Positions 4,187 through 33,580 of a stretch of DNA of 64,000 bases are shown here, piece after piece (positions within the stretch are counted from its first letter, which is position 1; every line of letters begins with the position of its first letter). The stretch is from NCBI GenBank assembly GCA_951406725.2, contig OX597818.1:143902001-143966000 (forward strand), in the 5' to 3' direction. The position numbers and the translations under genes were made by a program. Origin of the DNA: Octopus vulgaris. Taxonomy: Eukaryota. The notes beneath the pieces were generated by a model, which saw only the letters and a program-made list of their open reading frames with translations, had not been told where the DNA came from and made no database searches.

Positions 4187-4540
4187 TCTTCCGTTTTTGA
4201 AGCGCCTGTGCCACTATTTCGAAACATTGCGTCTTCCTAATTGATTCTGACATGCAATTGTCTGTGCAAGACCCTGCCTCAGTAAAGCTGGACTCATGAG
4301 TCATCTTCGTAGTCATAAAACGAGATAGATGAGTGGCAACCTGGCCACCGGTGGTGGTGTAACACACCATACTAATCATATCTGTCGGGCATGTGGAAGA
4401 GAGTGTAATTCGGCAGGAGGACTTAAACAACATGCAAAGGTACATGAAGCCCAGTTACAAGCATTCAGCCCAGATCTCCAGTCTAAATAAGATTAAATCC
4501 TTGTCTGCCACCACTTTGTACAAGACATTGTAGATCTCAC
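4187..4540 (+). repeat. Degenerate tandem duplicate of 3609-~3940
   Basis: Near-identical to 3609-3940 with scattered 1-2 bp insertions. Confidence 0.85.
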
Positions 4541-4676
4541 TAAATAGTGAGACACAAACGCACGAGCGAGCGCATGCGCATACACACACCACGCGCACAC
4601 ATACACACACACTCACACTCACACTCACACTCACATGCGTGCGTGTGTACAGCCATCATGTATGTATGTATGTATG

Positions 4677-7138: not shown

Positions 7139-9716
7139 GTTTCCAACACATTCTTCATGACTAAGCCGCATCACCAGGTCTCATGGAGGCACCCAAGGTC
7201 CGGACACTAGCACCAACTGGACATGGTCATCACCCGGCGAGCCCACCTCGGCAGTGTGCTTCTCACACGAAGCTACCATGGTGCTGACTGTGATACAGAC
7301 CACTCTTTGGTGTGCAGCAGGGTCCGATTGGCCCCAAAGAAAATCAACCGTCCCGTAGGGAAAAGCCGCCCACGCATCAACACCGCCAGGACAACCAACC
7401 CCGACCTCCGCTCGGAATTCACCAACCGCATGGAGGAGGCCCTTAAAGATCACGCAGCCACCTCATCGAGGAGAGATGGCAGATTATTCGCGACACCACT
7501 TGCAGAATAGCCATGTCATCCCTAGGAAAGAGGGAGCGGAGAAATCAAGACTTGTTTGGAGCTCACCTGCCTGAGATGGAGCCTGTCATTGCTGCCAAGA
7601 GGGAAGCACTGGTCAACTATAAGCGCGACCCATCAGAAAAGAACCTGGCTACTCTGAGAACAGCCAGAAGCGACGCCCAGAGGACGGCCAGACGTTGCGC
7701 CAACATCTACTGGCAGAACTTATGCCAGAACATCCAGTGCTGTGCTGACAGTGGTAACGTGAAAGGGATGTACGAGGGGATGAAGAAAGCATTCGGGCCC
7801 ACTGTCAGAAAGGTTGCTCCACTGAAGTCCAGAGATGGCGAGGTCATCAAGGACCAAGCGAAGCAGATGGAGAGGTGGGTCGAGCATTACCAGAACCTCT
7901 ACTCCACTGAGAATGTGGTCACCAGGTCTGCCCTCGCCGGCATTCCTGCTCTGCCTGTCATGGAGGAGCTTGACCTGCCTCCAACAAAGGAAGAACTGAG
8001 CAAAGCAATTGACTCACTCGCTCGGGGCAAGGCACCAGGGCAAGACGGCATCCCCGCAGAAGTCATCCAGTGCGGGAAGCCAGCCCTTCTGGGCCATCTC
8101 CATGAGCTGCTCTGTCAGTGCTGGGAGGAGGGCTCTGTCCCTAAGGATATGCGTGACGCAAACATCATCACACTGTATAAAAACAAAGGGGACAGAAGCG
8201 ACTGCAATAATTACAGGGGCATATCACTGCTCAGCACTGTCGGTAAGGCATTTGCCAGGGTGGTCCTGAAGAGGTTGCAAATACTTGCAGAGCGTGTGTA
8301 CCCCGAGTCTCAGTCTGGCTTTAGGGCAGAGAGGTCTACAATTGACATGATCTTCTCACTCAGGCAGCTTCAAGAAAAGAGTCGAGAACAGAGACAGCCC
8401 CTATACGTGGCCTTCATCGACCTGGCTAAGGCGTTCGACTCAGTCAGCAGGGAGGGGCTGTTTGCACTCCTGGGTAGGATAGGTTGCCCTCCCAGACTGC
8501 TGAAACTCATCACCTCCTTTCACGACGGTATGCAGGGAACAGTGCAGTTTGACGGATCGCCCTCGGAGTCATTCCCCATCCAGAGTGGAGTGAAACAGGG
8601 TTGCGTTCTGGCGCCGACGCTCTTCGGAATTTTCTTCTCCTTGTCCTGTCCTATGCCTTCAGAACGTCCGACGACGGAGTGTTCCTCCACACCAGGGCTG
8701 ATGGTGGATTGTTCAATCTTGCGCGCCTCAGAGCTAAGACCAAAGTCCGTCAGGTGCTGATCAGAGATATCCTCTTTGCTGACGATGCCGCCCTGACATC
8801 ACACAACCAACCGGGTCTCCAGAGGCTGGTCAGCTCCCTGGCGGATGCCTGCCAAGAGTTCGGCCTTACCATCAGCCTGAAAAAGACAGAGATCATGGGC
8901 CAGGACGTCGGAGGGGTCCCCAGCATCAGTGTCGGCGACCACAGCTTGCAGGTGGTGAATGAGTTCACTTACCTGGGATCGACGGTCTCCAGCAGCCTGT
9001 CCCTCGAGCCGGAGCTGAACAGACGGATTGGGAAGGCTGCTGCTGCCATGGCTAAGCTCTCCAGGAGAGTGTGGGAAAACAACATGCTCACAATAACCAC
9101 CAAGATCGCAGTGTACCGAGCCTGCGTGCTGAGCACCCTACTCTACGGCAGCGAGAGCTGGACAACATACACCCGGCAGGAATGCCGCCTCAGCGGCTTC
9201 CACATGCGGTGTCTTCGACGGATCCTTGGCATCTCCTGGAAGGACCGAGTGCCAAACGGAGTCATCCTGGAACAGACTAATATGCCAAGCATGTATGCCC
9301 TCCTCGTGCGGAGACGACTGCGCTGGCTCGGACACGTCTGCCGCATGCAGGACGGTCGCATGCCTAAAGACATCCTGTACAGCGAACTTACCACGGGATC
9401 CCGACCCAAGGGACGTCCACAGCTACGATACAGGGACGTGTGCAAGCGCGACCTGAGGACTGCCAACATCTGTGTGGACACGTGGGAGAAAACAGCTGCT
9501 GACCGCTCTGCCTGGCGTCGGACGGTGAGGAAAGGCGTTTCCATGGCTGAGGAGAGGAGAGCACAGCTGTGGTTGGACAGGCGGGACAGGAGGAGGACAA
9601 CTGCAGCAACACCCCACACGTACCCATCGATGTTCGTGTGCAGCAACTGTACCAAGGACTGCCACTCTAGAATTGGACTGTTCAGTCACAGCAGACGCTG
9701 CACATCATCAAAGTAG
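7139..9716 (+). pseudogene. RTE ORF (APE-RT), disrupted by frameshifts near ~7475 and ~8640 and by isolated stops
   Basis: ORFs 7223-7510, 7513-8760 and 8601-9716 join into one RTE polyprotein. Confidence 0.9.
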
Positions 9717-24088: not shown

Positions 24089-24125
24089 GGCGCAGGAGTG
24101 GCTGTGTGGTAAGTAGCTTGCTAAC
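24089..24125 (+). mobile_element. 5' head (A box) of a SINE family A copy split by two insertions
   Basis: ggcgcaggagtggctgtgtggtaagtagcttgctaac matches the head of the intact copy at 31474. Confidence 0.9.
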
Positions 24126-26109
24126 TGCGCATGTGCGAGTCAGTGTTGTGTTTGCTACTGAAGCAGTGAAGATGTGCTTTTGAAGCCGTCTTGAATTGAA
24201 AACTTTGGAAGCCCCATGTAAGGTAAGATTCTGTTTTCTGGATCCAGTGGGAGTTTTTGTTGAGAATTATTTTTTACATGCAGGAAGTCCTACTGGATTC
24301 AGAATTCTGATTCTGCCGACATGTGGCAGATATATTTTTCTCGCTGAGAAAATTTTGGGGGGCGTATCCGTCTTCGAATTGTGAAAATTGTATGGTGCTG
24401 TGAAGAACTACCAATTTTACACCAATTTTTGTGGAAGTTGTGCGATCCTGGTTCGATTTAGGCCGGGAGTACCAAATGGCCAAAAGGATTTTGCTGTGTT
24501 TTTGACTTTCTTTTTAACTTTATTTGACTTTCTTTTTAACTTTATTTGACTCTCTCCGTTTTTCATTGTGACTTTCTTCGGATTTCCTTTTCTTCTCGTT
24601 TTTTAGTTTTATTCTAAATACATTTATTTAAAAAAAAAAACAAAAAAACATGGCAACAAAAGAAACCACCGCTTTGGAATGGGAGGTCGTCCCACCAAAG
24701 CTGTGGATTGAAAGTCTTGAGAAGAGGACGGTGGTCCTACGAACCTATTCTAGGTCGCGTGGAGCCATTGCCCTCTTCGACAAGAATACTATAGAGAAAG
24801 AGTTGGGGGACTACCTGCCAACTATAAAATTTATTTCTCGGGGGAGCAAATTTGCAACGGTCTGGTTGCTATTTGGTACCCCCGAGGAAGCTAGCAGATT
24901 TGCTAGCGAGCCACTGGAGGGAGAGGAAATTTTGTTCCTCCCCTCGTATTGTGGCAGAAAAGTGAAAAGAGCCTGGGTGTGTGGGCTGCCCCCGGGCACG
25001 GAGGCGGAATGGATCGAAAAGACCATCCGGCGAGGCCTGGGGGATAGCGGACCCAGACTGCTAAGTGTGAAGGTGGCTCCTGCGGTCGCCTGGCAGGGGT
25101 CGAGGGCAACCTTGACCCTGTGGACACCGGTAGCGGTGGGGGAAATGAAATTCCCGGACTTCCTGAGAATGGCTGGGCACAGGTACCCGGTGATACTCGA
25201 GGGTCGCCCCCCCAAGTGTCACCTGTGCCTGAAGCCCGGACATATCAGGAAGAATTGTCCCAGGGGCCGTAGTGGTGCCCCGGAGCAGATAGGGGAAAAG
25301 GCGCCCGCCGCCCCCTCATTGGAGGGGGAGACGATGGAAGTCGTGGAGGAGGTTGCCTCCACGAAAAGAAAGAGAAAGGCGAGCAACAATGGTTGCCCGC
25401 CAAAGAACGCTCAGGGGGCGAAGGGGGATAGCAATCCCCCGTGTCTGGTGACAGAGTCCCCTGGGTCAGCAGTCTCCCCCAAAAGAAGGAGGAGAAAAAG
25501 AAGAGGTCGGACGACTGACGTTTCTGTGTCGCCGACGGAGCCGCGGGTGGGATGTGTGCCACCCGCGGACAAGGCTCCGCCAGTGGGAAGTGTGCCACCG
25601 ACGGAGGAGTGTGAGGTCCCTCCCTGTGAAGAGGAGATGCTTCTCCTCCTTTACCACAAGGGAGAGAAGGTTGAAAAATTCTTGACTGGCTTGGGTGACC
25701 GAGAGCGTAAGGACACGGTCGGCTCAAGGAGTCCGTTATGGCCTCCGCAGGTAGCTGCGGAGAAAGTAACAGAAGATACTTTGTCAAGGGTCGCAGAGAC
25801 CTTTGAAAAGAAAGACTTTACCTTTCTCTTTGCAGGCCCCGACTTGTCGTCGCAGAGTTGTCTGCAGGCGGCAAGACAATTTGCTTCGGGGACCTGACGA
25901 GAAGAATTGTTGAACATTTTTATGCAATTTGAATCATTGTTTATTAAATGTATTTATTGAAACATTGTTTTAGAGAAGCAAAAGTCGGCGGGCGCTTTCG
26001 ACTTCTCCCATCACCATCTTCATCAACCACCACCATCATCCATTAATGTCCTTGTCCAGCCCGTAGCTACTACTCTGTATGCTGCCCTAGTGGCAAATTA
26101 TTTAAAATA
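24126..26109 (+). mobile_element. ORF1-only non-autonomous non-LTR retroelement, copy 1, inserted in SINE A
   Basis: Flanked by a 15-bp TSD aagtagcttgctaac (24111-24125 and 26110-26124). Layout is 5'UTR, single gag-like ORF, conserved 3' tail ending AATAAA. No RT. Confidence 0.85.
24650..25897 (+). CDS. L1/Tx1-type ORF1 (gag-like, ZCCHC3-like) nucleic-acid-binding protein, 415 aa
   Basis: Intact GC-rich ORF. RRM-like blocks (RTVVLRTY..WLLFGTPEEA and AWVCGLPP..EWIE), EGRPPK plus CX2CX4HX4C knuckle (CHLCLKPGHIRKNC), basic NLS-like stretches and a disordered C-terminal half. Confidence 0.85.
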   Translation: MATKETTALEWEVVPPKLWIESLEKRTVVLRTYSRSRGAIALFDKNTIEKELGDYLPTIKFISRGSKFATVWLLFGTPEEASRFASEPLEGEEILFLPSYCGRKVKRAWVCGLPPGTEAEWIEKTIRRGLGDSGPRLLSVKVAPAVAWQGSRATLTLWTPVAVGEMKFPDFLRMAGHRYPVILEGRPPKCHLCLKPGHIRKNCPRGRSGAPEQIGEKAPAAPSLEGETMEVVEEVASTKRKRKASNNGCPPKNAQGAKGDSNPPCLVTESPGSAVSPKRRRRKRRGRTTDVSVSPTEPRVGCVPPADKAPPVGSVPPTEECEVPPCEEEMLLLLYHKGEKVEKFLTGLGDRERKDTVGSRSPLWPPQVAAEKVTEDTLSRVAETFEKKDFTFLFAGPDLSSQSCLQAARQFASGT

Positions 26110-26812
26110 AAGTAGCTTGCTAACCAGACATGCGCAGTTAGTCGGTTGCTTCTTGTTGAGCTAGAGTGGACGTGAGTCCAACTAAAGAAAAAAGACCAAA
26201 AACGGAAAGTTGTCGAGGTAAGTGATTTTGTTTATTGTGAGTTGGGCATAATTTATTGCGTGCCAATTATTATTTCAGTAGGTTGTGTCCAACTCTGAGA
26301 CAATTTCGCCTGCGCTAGGCGGCTGCCGTTTTTGTGTTCATTGAAAAAAAAAAAAAAAAAAGAAAAAACAGTGGAGGGGCGTATACTCAGAATTCAATAC
26401 AGTTACTGTTAAAATTACCGTTGGCAGTAACCAGTGCTGTGTTTGAGTTTGCTGAATTTATTCCCTTGTCAGAGTACTTCGCAAGAAAAGTATAAAAATA
26501 AGCCACTATTGGATTACCTTTCGGACCCATTTTTGTGGAGGTTGTGTTGCAGTTGCGGCGTTCCAGGTTCAACCCAGGCCGGGAGTACCGCAGAATATTT
26601 TTGCTGTGTTTTTTCTGTTTATTAACTTTCTTTTGAACTTCATTTACCCCCCCCCCTTTTTGTTTTTTCTTTATTGCGACTTTCCGTTAATTTCTTCCCT
26701 TCTGTTGTGCTTTCTCCTTTTTGTTTTTTCAAAAATCTATCAAATTTATTTAGACTTTTGAACTTTTTTCTTCCTGCTTTTGAGTCTAATTTGAATATAT
26801 TTTTTAAAAAAC

Positions 26813-28057
26813 ATGGCAATGAAAAATAACAAAGTTTTGGAGTGGGAAATCATACCACCCAAAAAGTGGTTGAAGGACCGTGAAGATAGGACGGTGGTGT
26901 TGAGAACCTACTCCAAGGCACTTGACACCATCGCCCTATTCGAAAAGACGGCAATTGAGGAGGAGTTGGAGGAGTATTTGCCAACAATTAAATTCATTTC
27001 CAGGGGTGTCAAATATGGAACGGTGTGGTTGCTGTTTGACACCCCTGAAGAGGCTTGCAAATTTGCTAGCGAACCCTTGGAGGGTAAGGAAATCTTATTC
27101 CTGCCCACTTACAAAAAAAAGAAATTGATGAAAGCTTGGATCTGCGGACTGCCACCCGACATAGAACCCGAGTGGATAGAGGAGACTATCCGCCGGGGTC
27201 TGGGTGACAGCGAAACTAAGCTCCTCAATGTAAAAGTCCTTCCTGCGGCTGCTTGGGTTGGCTCGAAAGCAGTTTTGACCCTGTGGACCCAATCAGCCAA
27301 TCTGGTTTTTCCAGATTTTTTGAAAATGGCCGGGTGCAGGTACCCGGTGATGCTTGAGGGTCGCCCCCCTAAGTGTCATCGGTGCTTGGAGTCCGGCCAC
27401 ATAAAGAAGAACTGTCCTCGGGAACAAAATAGGATCCCGGAACAGTTAAGTAAAACCCCTCTAGAAGAGGGAACGATAACGGCCGAGAAAGCAGAGGACT
27501 CCTCAAGCAGAGGCCGAAAGAGGAAGGTGAGCAACAATGGGTGCTCACCAAAGGATAATAGGGATGAGGAGAGGAGGGCGAATCTTCCAGCCACGGAGGA
27601 GACGCACCCTCCCTCAGTTGAAAAGGGAAAAAAAAAGAAAAAGAGGAAGAAAAACGGGACGTTGCCGGCTGTCAGTGTGGCACCGGAATGTCGCGGAACT
27701 ACGTCGGTTGGGGTTGTGCCACCGACAAGAGAAGGAATACCGTTGGCGGAAACTGTGCCGCCAACGAAAGAACCGAATGTATTGGTCCTCTTCTATAGAG
27801 GAGGAGAAATTGAAAAAGTGATGGAAGAGCACTACAAGGGAGCACCTTTAGCCTTCACACAGGACCCCGAATGGCCTCCGCAGGTAGCTGTGGAGGCCGT
27901 GGCGTTCGACGTGACGCTAGGGCTAAAGGAGCTCAATGAAGACTATAACTTGGTCCCGGGCGACGCGAACTCGGAACTTGACTACGTTCTGAGGGAGGCG
28001 TGGTTGATGGTGGAGGGCGCGGGCACAAGCTATTTCGAGGACGATATGTATTATTAG
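26813..28057 (+). CDS. L1/Tx1-type ORF1 protein, 414 aa, paralogue of 24650-25897
   Basis: Intact ORF. The N-terminal ~205 aa align almost without gaps to copy 1 (roughly two-thirds identical by eye). Knuckle CHRCLESGHIKKNC. RKRK.SNNGC.PK and WPPQVA.E are shared. Confidence 0.85.
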   Translation: MAMKNNKVLEWEIIPPKKWLKDREDRTVVLRTYSKALDTIALFEKTAIEEELEEYLPTIKFISRGVKYGTVWLLFDTPEEACKFASEPLEGKEILFLPTYKKKKLMKAWICGLPPDIEPEWIEETIRRGLGDSETKLLNVKVLPAAAWVGSKAVLTLWTQSANLVFPDFLKMAGCRYPVMLEGRPPKCHRCLESGHIKKNCPREQNRIPEQLSKTPLEEGTITAEKAEDSSSRGRKRKVSNNGCSPKDNRDEERRANLPATEETHPPSVEKGKKKKKRKKNGTLPAVSVAPECRGTTSVGVVPPTREGIPLAETVPPTKEPNVLVLFYRGGEIEKVMEEHYKGAPLAFTQDPEWPPQVAVEAVAFDVTLGLKELNEDYNLVPGDANSELDYVLREAWLMVEGAGTSYFEDDMYY

Positions 28058-28184
28058 TAATGGACTTAAGTCCAAAAATTGAAAAATTGTAAGAGGATTA
28101 ATACCTCGTTTTGTATTAATAATGGACTGCTAAGCCCAAAATTGGAAAAATTGTAAGAGGTTTAATACCTCGTTTTGTGTTAAT
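28058..28184 (+). repeat. ~63-bp tandem duplication in the 3'UTR of copy 2
   Basis: aatggact..aaaaattgtaagagg.ttaatacctcgttttgt.ttaat occurs twice. Confidence 0.85.
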
Positions 28185-28353
28185 CTTTTTAAAAAGAACA
28201 ATGTTTTAGAGAAGCAAAAGTCGGCGGGCGCTTTCTGTCTTCTCCCATCCTTATCATCTTTCTTTCATTATCATTCACCTCATTAATGTCCTCGTCCAGC
28301 CCGCAAAGCTAACTTAATCTGTGTACTGCCTTTATGGCAAATGTTTTGAAATA

Positions 28354-28745
28354 AAGTAGCTTGCTAACCAAGCACATGGTTCCGGGTTCAGTCCCACTGC
28401 GTGGCATCTTGGGCAAGTGTCTTCTGCTATAGCCTCGGGCCGACCAATGCCTTGTGAGTGGATTTGGTAGACGGAAACTGAAAGAAGTCTGTCGTATATA
28501 TGTATATATATGTATGTGTGTGTATGTCTGTGTGTATGTGTTTGTCCCCCTAGCGTTGCTTGACAACCGATGCTGGTGTGTTTACGTCCCCGTCACTTAG
28601 CGGTTCGGCAAAAAGAGACCGATAGAATAAGTACTGGGCTTACAAAGAATAAGTCCCGGGGTCGATTTGCTCGACCAAAGGCGGTGCTCCAGCATGGCCG
28701 CAGTCAAATGACTGAAACAATTAAAAGAGTTAAAAGAGTTAAAGA
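28354..28745 (+). mobile_element. Remainder (B box, body, tail) of the split SINE A
   Basis: Resumes aagtagcttgctaaccaagcacatggttccgggttcagtcccactgc..., colinear with 31496-31900, and ends in an (aaagagtt)n tail. Confidence 0.92.
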
Positions 28746-32424: not shown

Positions 32425-33580
32425 GGCAAACAAGGATAGACAAACGGATTAAGTCGATTACATCGACCCCAGTGAGTAACTGGTACTTATTTAATCGACC
32501 CCAAAATGATGAAAGGCAAAGTCAACCTCGGCGGAATTTGAACTCAGAACGTAGCGGCAGACGAAATACTTATTTCTTTACTACCCACAAGGGGCTAAAC
32601 ATAGAGGGGACAAACAAGTACAGACAAACGGATTAAGTGGATTATATCAACTCCAGTGCGTAACTGATACTTAATTTATCGACCCCAAAAGGATGAAGGG
32701 CAAAGTCGACCTCGGTGGAATTTGAACTCAGAACGTAGCGGCAGACGAAATTCTGCTAAGCATTTCGCCCGGTGTGCTAACGTTTCTGCTAGCTCGCCGC
32801 TTTAAGAGCTCCCCTCTGTGTTTAGCCCCTTGTAGGTAGTAAAGAAATAGGTATTTCGCCTGCCGCTACGTTCTGAGTTCAAATTCCGTTAGTTCGACTT
32901 TGCCTTTCATCCTTTCGGGGTCGACTTTGCCTTTTATCCTTTCGGGGTCGATTAAATAAGTACCAGTTACGCACTGGGGTCGATATAATCGACTTAATCC
33001 GTTTGTCTGTACTTGTTTGTCCCCTCTGTGTTTAACCCCTTATGGGTAGTAAAGAAATAGGTATTTCGCCTGCCGCTACGTTCTGAGTTCAAATTCCACC
33101 GAGGTCGACTTTGCCTTTCATCTTTTCGGGGTCCATTAAATAAGTACCAGTTACTCACTGGGGTCAATATAATCGATTAATCCGTTTGTCTGTCATTGTT
33201 TGTCCCCTCTGTGGTTAGCCCCTTGTGAGTAGTAAAGAAATAGGTATTTCGCCTGCCGCTACGTTCTGAGTTCAAATTCCGCCGAGGTTGACTTTGCCTT
33301 TCATCATTTTGGGGTCGATTAAATAAGTACCAGTTACTCACTGGGGTCAATATAATCGATTAATCCATTTGTCTATCCTTGTTTGTCCCCTCTGTGTTTA
33401 GCCCCTTATGGGTAGTAAATAAATAGGTATTTCGTCTGTCTTTGCGTTCTAAGTTCAAATTCCGACGAGGTTGACTTTACTTTTCAGCGTCGATAAAATA
33501 AGTACCAGTTGCGTACTGGGGTCAATGTAATCAACTGTCCCCCGCCTCAAAAATTTGGGGACTTGTGCCTAGAGTAGAAA
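32425..33580. repeat. Inverted and tandem array of SINE B units
   Basis: Two minus units (32425-32803) face about four head-truncated plus units of ~180-210 bp joined by aaagaaata|ggtatttcg. Confidence 0.85.

Follow-up and report, generated by a model that had tools for sequence, protein, structure and literature searches.

The window analysed here is a stretch of 64,000 nucleotides from Octopus vulgaris (positions 143,902,001 to 143,966,000 of contig OX597818.1). Two retroelements of about 2 kb each, units A and B, are stacked head to tail within one SINE head; all features of this locus are on the forward strand. Positions 24089..24110 hold the 5' portion of the host SINE head, which includes an A-box-like stretch. 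This portion is followed by the 5' copy of the duplicated target and a target-like leader (24111..24125, core 24111-24119). Unit A, a young ORF1-only non-LTR element found in tandem arrays, occupies 24126..26109. A target duplication at 26110..26125 separates it from unit B (26126..28353), an ORF1-only element of a different family. The 3' target copy and SINE body, including a B-box-like stretch, complete the locus (28354..28490). Note that the SINE parts and the separating duplication were delimited from the sequence. The host looks like octopus SINEs.

Searches covered the 2.8-Gb genome, where exact copies of the free (uninterrupted) SINE head number 68,385. Insertion is target specific: genome-wide, 1042 GGCAA-type ends are joined to one target position, compared with 1 in the control. 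At truncated copies, target duplications are about 5-16 bp. The best 40 genome matches to the unit A tail are 97-100% identical and many are spaced 2 kb apart, indicating arrays. At one such array (L082, G000:C1:223706001-223716000) another unit A lies about 8 kb away on the opposite strand. Contigs of four sequencing runs, which we guess to be of RNA, span units A and B at a resolution that does not extend to ends or strand. Two further repeats were seen in the window. A second SINE forms a 183-bp tandem array (32919-33532), and a pyrimidine-rich stretch of its unit also occurs in the tails of autonomous elements. The 3' UTR of unit B contains a tandem duplication of 64 bp (28052-28184).

Each unit has one ORF (~415 amino acids) with a weak CCHC knuckle, and neither encodes an endonuclease (EN) or reverse transcriptase (RT). 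For ORF1 of unit A (24650..25897, 415 amino acids) the zf-CCHC match has an E-value of 0.029, which falls short of Pfam's cut-off, and Pfam detected no RRM in ORF1. The ORF1 of unit B (26813-28057) is 49% identical to that of unit A. Autonomous elements of ~5.5 kb, encoding EN and RT, occupy the same arrays and the same SINE site. These partners have an ORF1 and an ORF2, the latter with an APE endonuclease and an L1-like RT. ORF2 of one copy (L073) aligns with residues 6-870 of human L1 ORF2p, across EN and RT, with an E-value of 8.5e-67, and relatives carry PF03372, PF00078, and PF13966. We provisionally take the partner to be of Tx1 type, a label that leans on target specificity and general traits of the clade. 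By tblastn, passenger ORF1 is 25-29% identical to ORF1 of the autonomous elements. Since the two kinds of element have a common site, common arrays and a common terminal hairpin, we infer that units A and B, which are HAL1-like, are passengers mobilised in trans by the autonomous element. Elements with EN and RT are also found nested in an ORF1-only element or in each other (L034:950-6290 on the minus strand, L077, and L085), with differing ends and sites; in L085 a 5'-truncated RT element immediately follows a B-type tail. In the window, positions 7447-9716 contain part of the RT of another LINE, frameshifted and with 26% identity to the partner-type RT.

An initial annotation of the window had proposed that both units end in a conserved, structured 3' tail without poly(A). 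The sequence bears out this description. The 34-bp block at 25966-25999 is identical to 28202-28235, the downstream GCCCG(T/C) copies start at 26059 and 28299, and the TGCC-N5-GGCA hairpins are at 26083-26095 and 28327-28339. The stems of the tail, and an AATAAA that overlaps the AA of the target, were likewise found in both copies. As claimed, the UTRs are otherwise divergent; the 150 nt upstream are ~41% alike, compared with 73% for the tails. A 26-nt tail core, allowing up to two mismatches, has 767 matches in the genome and none in the reversed control. Hence, the core does not arise by chance. In a set of 49 distinct copies, for which the core was the sole selection criterion, every tail abuts the target directly, so poly(A) is indeed missing. 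The run of A at the junction varies from 0 to 4 and is 3 in 46 of these copies. AATAAA spans the junction in 47 of the 49, and in 17 of 18 tails of RT elements. In unit A this hexamer, completed by the AA of the target (26106..26111), is likely to be a poly(A) signal. Many families start with a GU- or U-rich stretch (24126-24160 in the window) which, in arrays, sits just downstream of the AATAAA of the preceding unit. As a guess, such starts could act as a downstream cleavage element for that unit. Full-length copies (L050, L062, and L067; L042, L064, L066, L084, L087, L090, and L145) have recurring variants of the 5' target-like leader, which differ from their own 3' target copy. This suggests that the RNA starts inside the target of the donor site.

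Tails and coding regions do not always share a history. Two copies (L059 and L069) have an ORF1 just 42% identical to that of unit A, yet tails 88-93% identical to the unit A tail. Two others (L151 and L157) have ORF1 segments that are 68-81% identical and tails only 53-58% identical. Furthermore, L151 and L154 agree in their 5' domain but differ in their 3' ends. Tails have evidently been swapped between lineages. Given this mismatch between tail and ORF1 identity, the identity of the 34-bp block partly reflects tail swapping, rather than selection alone.

For an analysis of covariation, 210 loci gave 111 core-type tails, which formed 59 clusters (at 90%), and 40 representatives were aligned. 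The remaining 19 of 59 were excluded by eye as decayed, truncated or near-duplicate. Compensating changes across these 40 subfamilies indicate that the hairpin structure is real. For the 20 proposed pairs, 101 cells of the alignment are changed on both sides, compared with 39.0 +/- 5.5 in shuffles. Similarly, 91.8% of cells are paired, compared with 81.4% in shuffles and 40-53% with slid partners. For two other measures, based on counts of pairs or of types, the excess was not significant, with 59 and 102 of 500 shuffles doing as well. The strongest covariation in the tail is in the 5' hairpin, which has an outer and an inner stem (25973..26007) and a conserved 10-nt loop (25985-25994). Changes on both sides occur in nine of its 10 pairs, and 88-93% of cells are paired. 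At the closing position, 21 of 40 rows have A-U and 18 have G-C. RNAalifold finds the same stems independently. Two extra loop pairs from RNAalifold were rejected, since each has a double change in just 1 of 40 rows. Note that the hairpin domain, folded alone, beats shuffles only modestly (mean z of -1.2, with 24 of 59 under -1.5); hence, the structural case depends on covariation.

The hairpin is followed by a variable, G-poor and YCAY-rich spacer (26008..26058). Across 59 spacers, YCAY occurs 280 times, compared with 70 in mononucleotide and 238 in dinucleotide shuffles, and G makes up 5%. We would guess at a protein-binding site. Next is the 3' strand of the pseudoknot helix (26059..26064), whose partner is the loop segment 25988-25993. 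Cells of this helix are paired in 95.8% of cases, and are mostly invariant, across the 40 rows. A family-wide swap replaces C-G with U-A: a loop U has a partner A in 21 of 21 such rows, counted among the first 100 of 158 matches, and the U-A family is absent from all 58 rows with a C/A mismatch. The swap is a single evolutionary event. A change from G-C to A-U in three rows may be CpG decay. A pseudoknot is likely, an assignment that we base on near-invariance together with this one family-wide swap. The terminal hairpin (26083..26095) is also present in autonomous elements; across the 40 rows, its outer pair swaps between U-A (28 rows) and G-C (8 rows). In unit B, the tail (28209..28339) comprises the hairpin (28209-28244), the pseudoknot strand (28299-28304), a bulged motif (28306-28315) and the terminal hairpin (28327-28339). 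The tails have no match in Rfam at E-values up to 10, bar one sub-threshold CRISPR-repeat match that touches B. A ribozyme reading was rejected; Rfam gave no match, and comparison by eye with twister and HDV layouts showed no fit.

Directly after the pseudoknot strand is a feature absent from the initial annotation. The motif AGCT(A/T)C is complementary to AG(T/A)AGCT, the target that is duplicated; in unit A, 26065..26071 is the reverse complement of 26111-26117. The central target base of the SINE has two variants, with 80 AGT and 20 AGA among the first 100 free heads listed. Genome-wide, tails with TAC precede AGT in 535 cases. They precede AGA in 56, of which 13 were judged by eye to be non-elements, leaving 43; about 35 of these are in one family related to B, and 8 are scattered. 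Tails with TTC total 231, and the first 100 listed comprise 95 before AGA (three look non-element) and 5 before AGT (one is the duplication itself). Among autonomous-type tails at AGA, 14 of 15 have TTC. For RT elements, motif and target are concordant in 16 of 17, where those at AGA were picked through autonomous-type tails before AGA. The AGT and AGA at insertions are true targets, since the 5' copy, 3' copy, and downstream diagnostic mostly agree. A perfect match between motif and target is not required, given the mismatched family of ~35 copies and TTC copies at AGT, three of which (L179-L181) are at true AGT sites. The motif is missing from several families (the L074 type and L081).

The association was also examined in the light of relatedness. 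A tail tree was built with the motif base masked; of its 51 subfamily rows, 46 are concordant (phi of 0.80). When an independent trait was simulated on the tree, 1 of 16,530 runs attained that value. Note that the rows were selected by motif and target patterns, so are a non-random sample, and that tail swapping can spread a state. The ORF1 and tail trees imply 7-8 changes of motif and 10 of target. Sign tests on independent pairs were not significant for the ORF1 tree (4 same, 0 opposite, 2 unchanged; p of 0.125) or for the tail tree (p of 0.25). The motif is 62-80 nt from the end in autonomous elements and 42-50 nt in passengers, with switches in both, and close sister subfamilies differ at motif and target alike. 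Host SINEs with AGA are 87% identical to the SINE of the window, compared with 93% for AGT hosts, a measure biased by the reference itself being an AGT copy. The AGA hosts look older. Several lineages may consequently have tracked the succession of SINEs in parallel, for which pairing would still be needed. We make no claim that duplication length equals motif length, as duplications at truncated copies span the range given above. The motif changing together with the site suggests that the RNA likely base-pairs with landing-site sequence during insertion. Three partners for the motif have the same sequence: a read-through RNA trailer, the top strand of the target, and the upstream leader.

How the tail works can be read in several ways. 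Following the initial annotation, the partner RT would recognise the entire tail, pseudoknot included, and the RNA would have an A-rich end of which 2-3 As prime. As a complete account, we consider this improbable. The part that stands is the terminal hairpin: autonomous and passenger elements have in common this hairpin and an AT-rich GAAATA end, and the hairpin is likely to be a handle for the RT of the autonomous elements. The part concerning the 34-nt block and pseudoknot is not supported. A search for the same tail on autonomous LINEs, using a hairpin profile, matched none of 21 RT-element 3' regions and all 3 positive controls, in a sample chosen mainly via the terminal hairpin, from which a rare core-bearing partner could escape. 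Just 1 of 111 core tails has an RT upstream, and this is a nested insertion. The autonomous element in L034 was considered as a core-bearing partner and rejected, as it is nested in an ORF1-only element and has its own separate end. Furthermore, the site also holds insertions of ORF1-only families that lack the core, and of copies truncated to 50-65 bp. Hence, the pseudoknot hairpin is unlikely to be an RT signal; the switching of motif with target would also be left unexplained. Set against this are the pseudoknot-hinge-stem tails that, as far as PMC12180492 describes them, are the RT signal in avian R2. In addition, a G-rich hairpin loop lies 77-147 nt upstream of a C-rich loop, and could pair with it, in 5 of the 9 tails that have the latter. 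Two of the five are RT elements of other lineages with similar spacing, and one (L081) is at the same SINE site. The pseudoknot topology may therefore be older than, and shared beyond, the tail sequence itself. The core-less copies L074, L081, L077, L136, and L208 all have such a G-rich hairpin loop, complementary to the downstream C-rich loop. The stem of the C-rich loop has compensating letters in L077 and L081; a kissing-loop analogue of the pseudoknot is possible.

Another reading treats the concordance as historical, with the motif converted by fold-back of cDNA, or spread by tail swapping, and serving no function in insertion. Tail swapping is evident, and new cDNA would contain both the target complement and a copy of the motif, so could fold back. 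We nevertheless think this very improbable: autonomous and passenger tails retain the motif at different positions, and it switches in both; the exception family made ~35 copies without conversion; and close sister subfamilies differ at both positions. In a more serious contender, the top strand of the target DNA, once displaced, is the partner of the motif, and their pairing helps to open or choose the site. We hold this RNA-assisted targeting to be possible, though on the unlikely side. In its favour, the motif is complementary to the part of the top strand that is duplicated. Outside the exception family, TAC tails are at 8 AGA and 535 AGT sites, though 20 of the first 100 free heads have AGA, and in 15 of 20 discordant junctions the site letter tracks the motif rather than the downstream SINE variant. 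For R2, PMC12180492 describes, in the part available, base-level contact of template RNA with second-strand DNA. However, the exception family inserted ~35 times despite a central mismatch and, because AGA hosts look older, the site preference may stem from SINE succession over time or from the choice of the endonuclease. Extension of pairing into the upstream flank would favour the top strand or the upstream leader. Such pairing was better by energy (30 versus 8 of 53) but failed a permutation control, in which the real flank ranks 22 of 35 for passengers and 33 of 35 for autonomous elements, and was rejected. The specific proposal of an antisense guide in the 3' tail, whereby 6-9 nt capture the displaced target strand and RNA helps to read the landing site, seems doubtful to us.

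We lean, with some reserve, towards the motif pairing with a target-derived RNA trailer, the terminal hairpin acting as RT handle, and the pseudoknot belonging to the passenger lineage. Site-specific insertion, DNA without poly(A), covarying helices, and motif switching with target are established. RNA cleavage occurs shortly downstream of AATAAA. Transcription would pass through the junction, and the target-completed AATAAA would direct cleavage ~10-25 nt downstream. The RNA would thereby bear target sequence, and probably also poly(A), past the end of the element. This trailer could fold back onto the motif, enclosing the terminal hairpin, and the borrowed ORF2 protein would bind the fold. 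The endonuclease would then nick the bottom strand and the trailer would swap onto that primer. Copying would begin exactly at the last base of the element, and the poly(A) would not be copied. Once released, the motif may keep hold of the displaced top strand. Least certain of all, the upstream pseudoknot might compact or protect the RNA, or dock ORF1 protein, while being dispensable for RT recognition.

Evidence for this trailer comes from the conservation of the target-completed AATAAA, from the fixed position of the junction, from the way unit B folds and from one insertion, L149. Unit B, extended by 16 nt, folds with the motif paired to the trailer; the lowest-energy structure of unit A plus 16 nt lacks this pairing. 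In L149, a short insertion (4480-4600), the 5' half is an inverted element 3' end extended by ~10 nt of target, and the join is at an inverted repeat of the target itself. For this single case, twin priming on trailer-bearing RNA and DNA fold-back both fit. Priming by A-microhomology is possible, as the AA is formally shared. However, the target-complementary motif, the conservation of AATAAA and the constant junction all fit better with a longer, target-derived trailer. At junctions, bases templated by the trailer are not in excess. We also rejected the idea that the 3' target letter is replaced from an RNA template: discordance at junctions (11 + 9) is no commoner than in free SINE heads, where discordance is 3 of 20 and 7 of 80 among the first 100 rows listed. 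In published systems, the available parts of PMC10499050 report that R2Bm priming is made precise by 3' homology and, as cited in PMC7265360, R1Bm requires downstream target sequence.

We conclude that the tail is a real, covarying RNA structure, set apart by a passenger-borne pseudoknot, tail exchange, and an antisense motif that switches with the site. The tail bears on how reverse transcription is started exactly in site-specific APE retrotransposons without copied poly(A), and on whether RNA has a role in target reading; targeting is usually credited to the endonuclease. A role for RNA is directly testable here, since there are natural compensatory changes for three helices, a two-variant motif/target pair and an exception family. 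Furthermore, protein-coding passengers bear a structured, exchangeable tail domain that is missing from autonomous elements at the same site. If the guide reading were true, lineages would have been retargeted between SINE variants by one RNA letter change, and the two natural motif/target pairs would offer a handle for reprogramming. We found no report of the target-complementary motif, or of this pseudoknot, in the openly accessible main texts searched. For one octopus, 13 recently active L1-Tx1 families are described in PMC13282606, the available main text of which does not use the word target.

Several known systems share parts of this arrangement. Like HAL1 (half-L1), as described in the available part of PMC5753468, the octopus units are non-autonomous, have ORF1 only, and have L1-type relatives. 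Unlike HAL1, they are site specific and stacked head to tail, their DNA lacks poly(A), their tails are structured and exchangeable, and their ORF1 has a CCHC knuckle. Tx1-clade LINEs, as far as PMC4494074 describes them, are also APE-type, target another repeat, and have passengers to the same site; examples are Tx1L in Tx1D, and Tx1-Mar with SINEU in Mariner-N4_AMi. However, the octopus target is a SINE head, and SINEU ends in poly(A). The available part of the same paper credits targeting to the endonuclease and describes no target-complementary tail motif. In stringent-type elements (UnaL2 and maize L1/ZmSINE; PMC3747384, in part), autonomous and passenger elements share a 3' stem-loop with compensatory changes. 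Octopus autonomous and passenger elements have this trait, a terminal 3' stem-loop with covariation, and the tails add a pseudoknot domain and a target-complementary motif. The A-clade R2 3' UTR has a pseudoknot upstream of a terminal stem (PMC12180492, in part) and, for R2, downstream target aids priming and RNA contacts second-strand DNA (available parts of PMC10499050 and PMC12180492). By these accounts R2 differs in having a restriction-like endonuclease, and a pseudoknot that is essential and on the autonomous RNA. In addition, its RNA-DNA contact is one base, compared with the helix of 6-9 bp proposed for the octopus motif. Finally, R1Bm and SART1Bm are also of APE type, and annealing of their RNA to the target is described (PMC7265360, in the part available). 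There, the target-like RNA is target sense and pairs with the primer strand, whereas the octopus motif is antisense.
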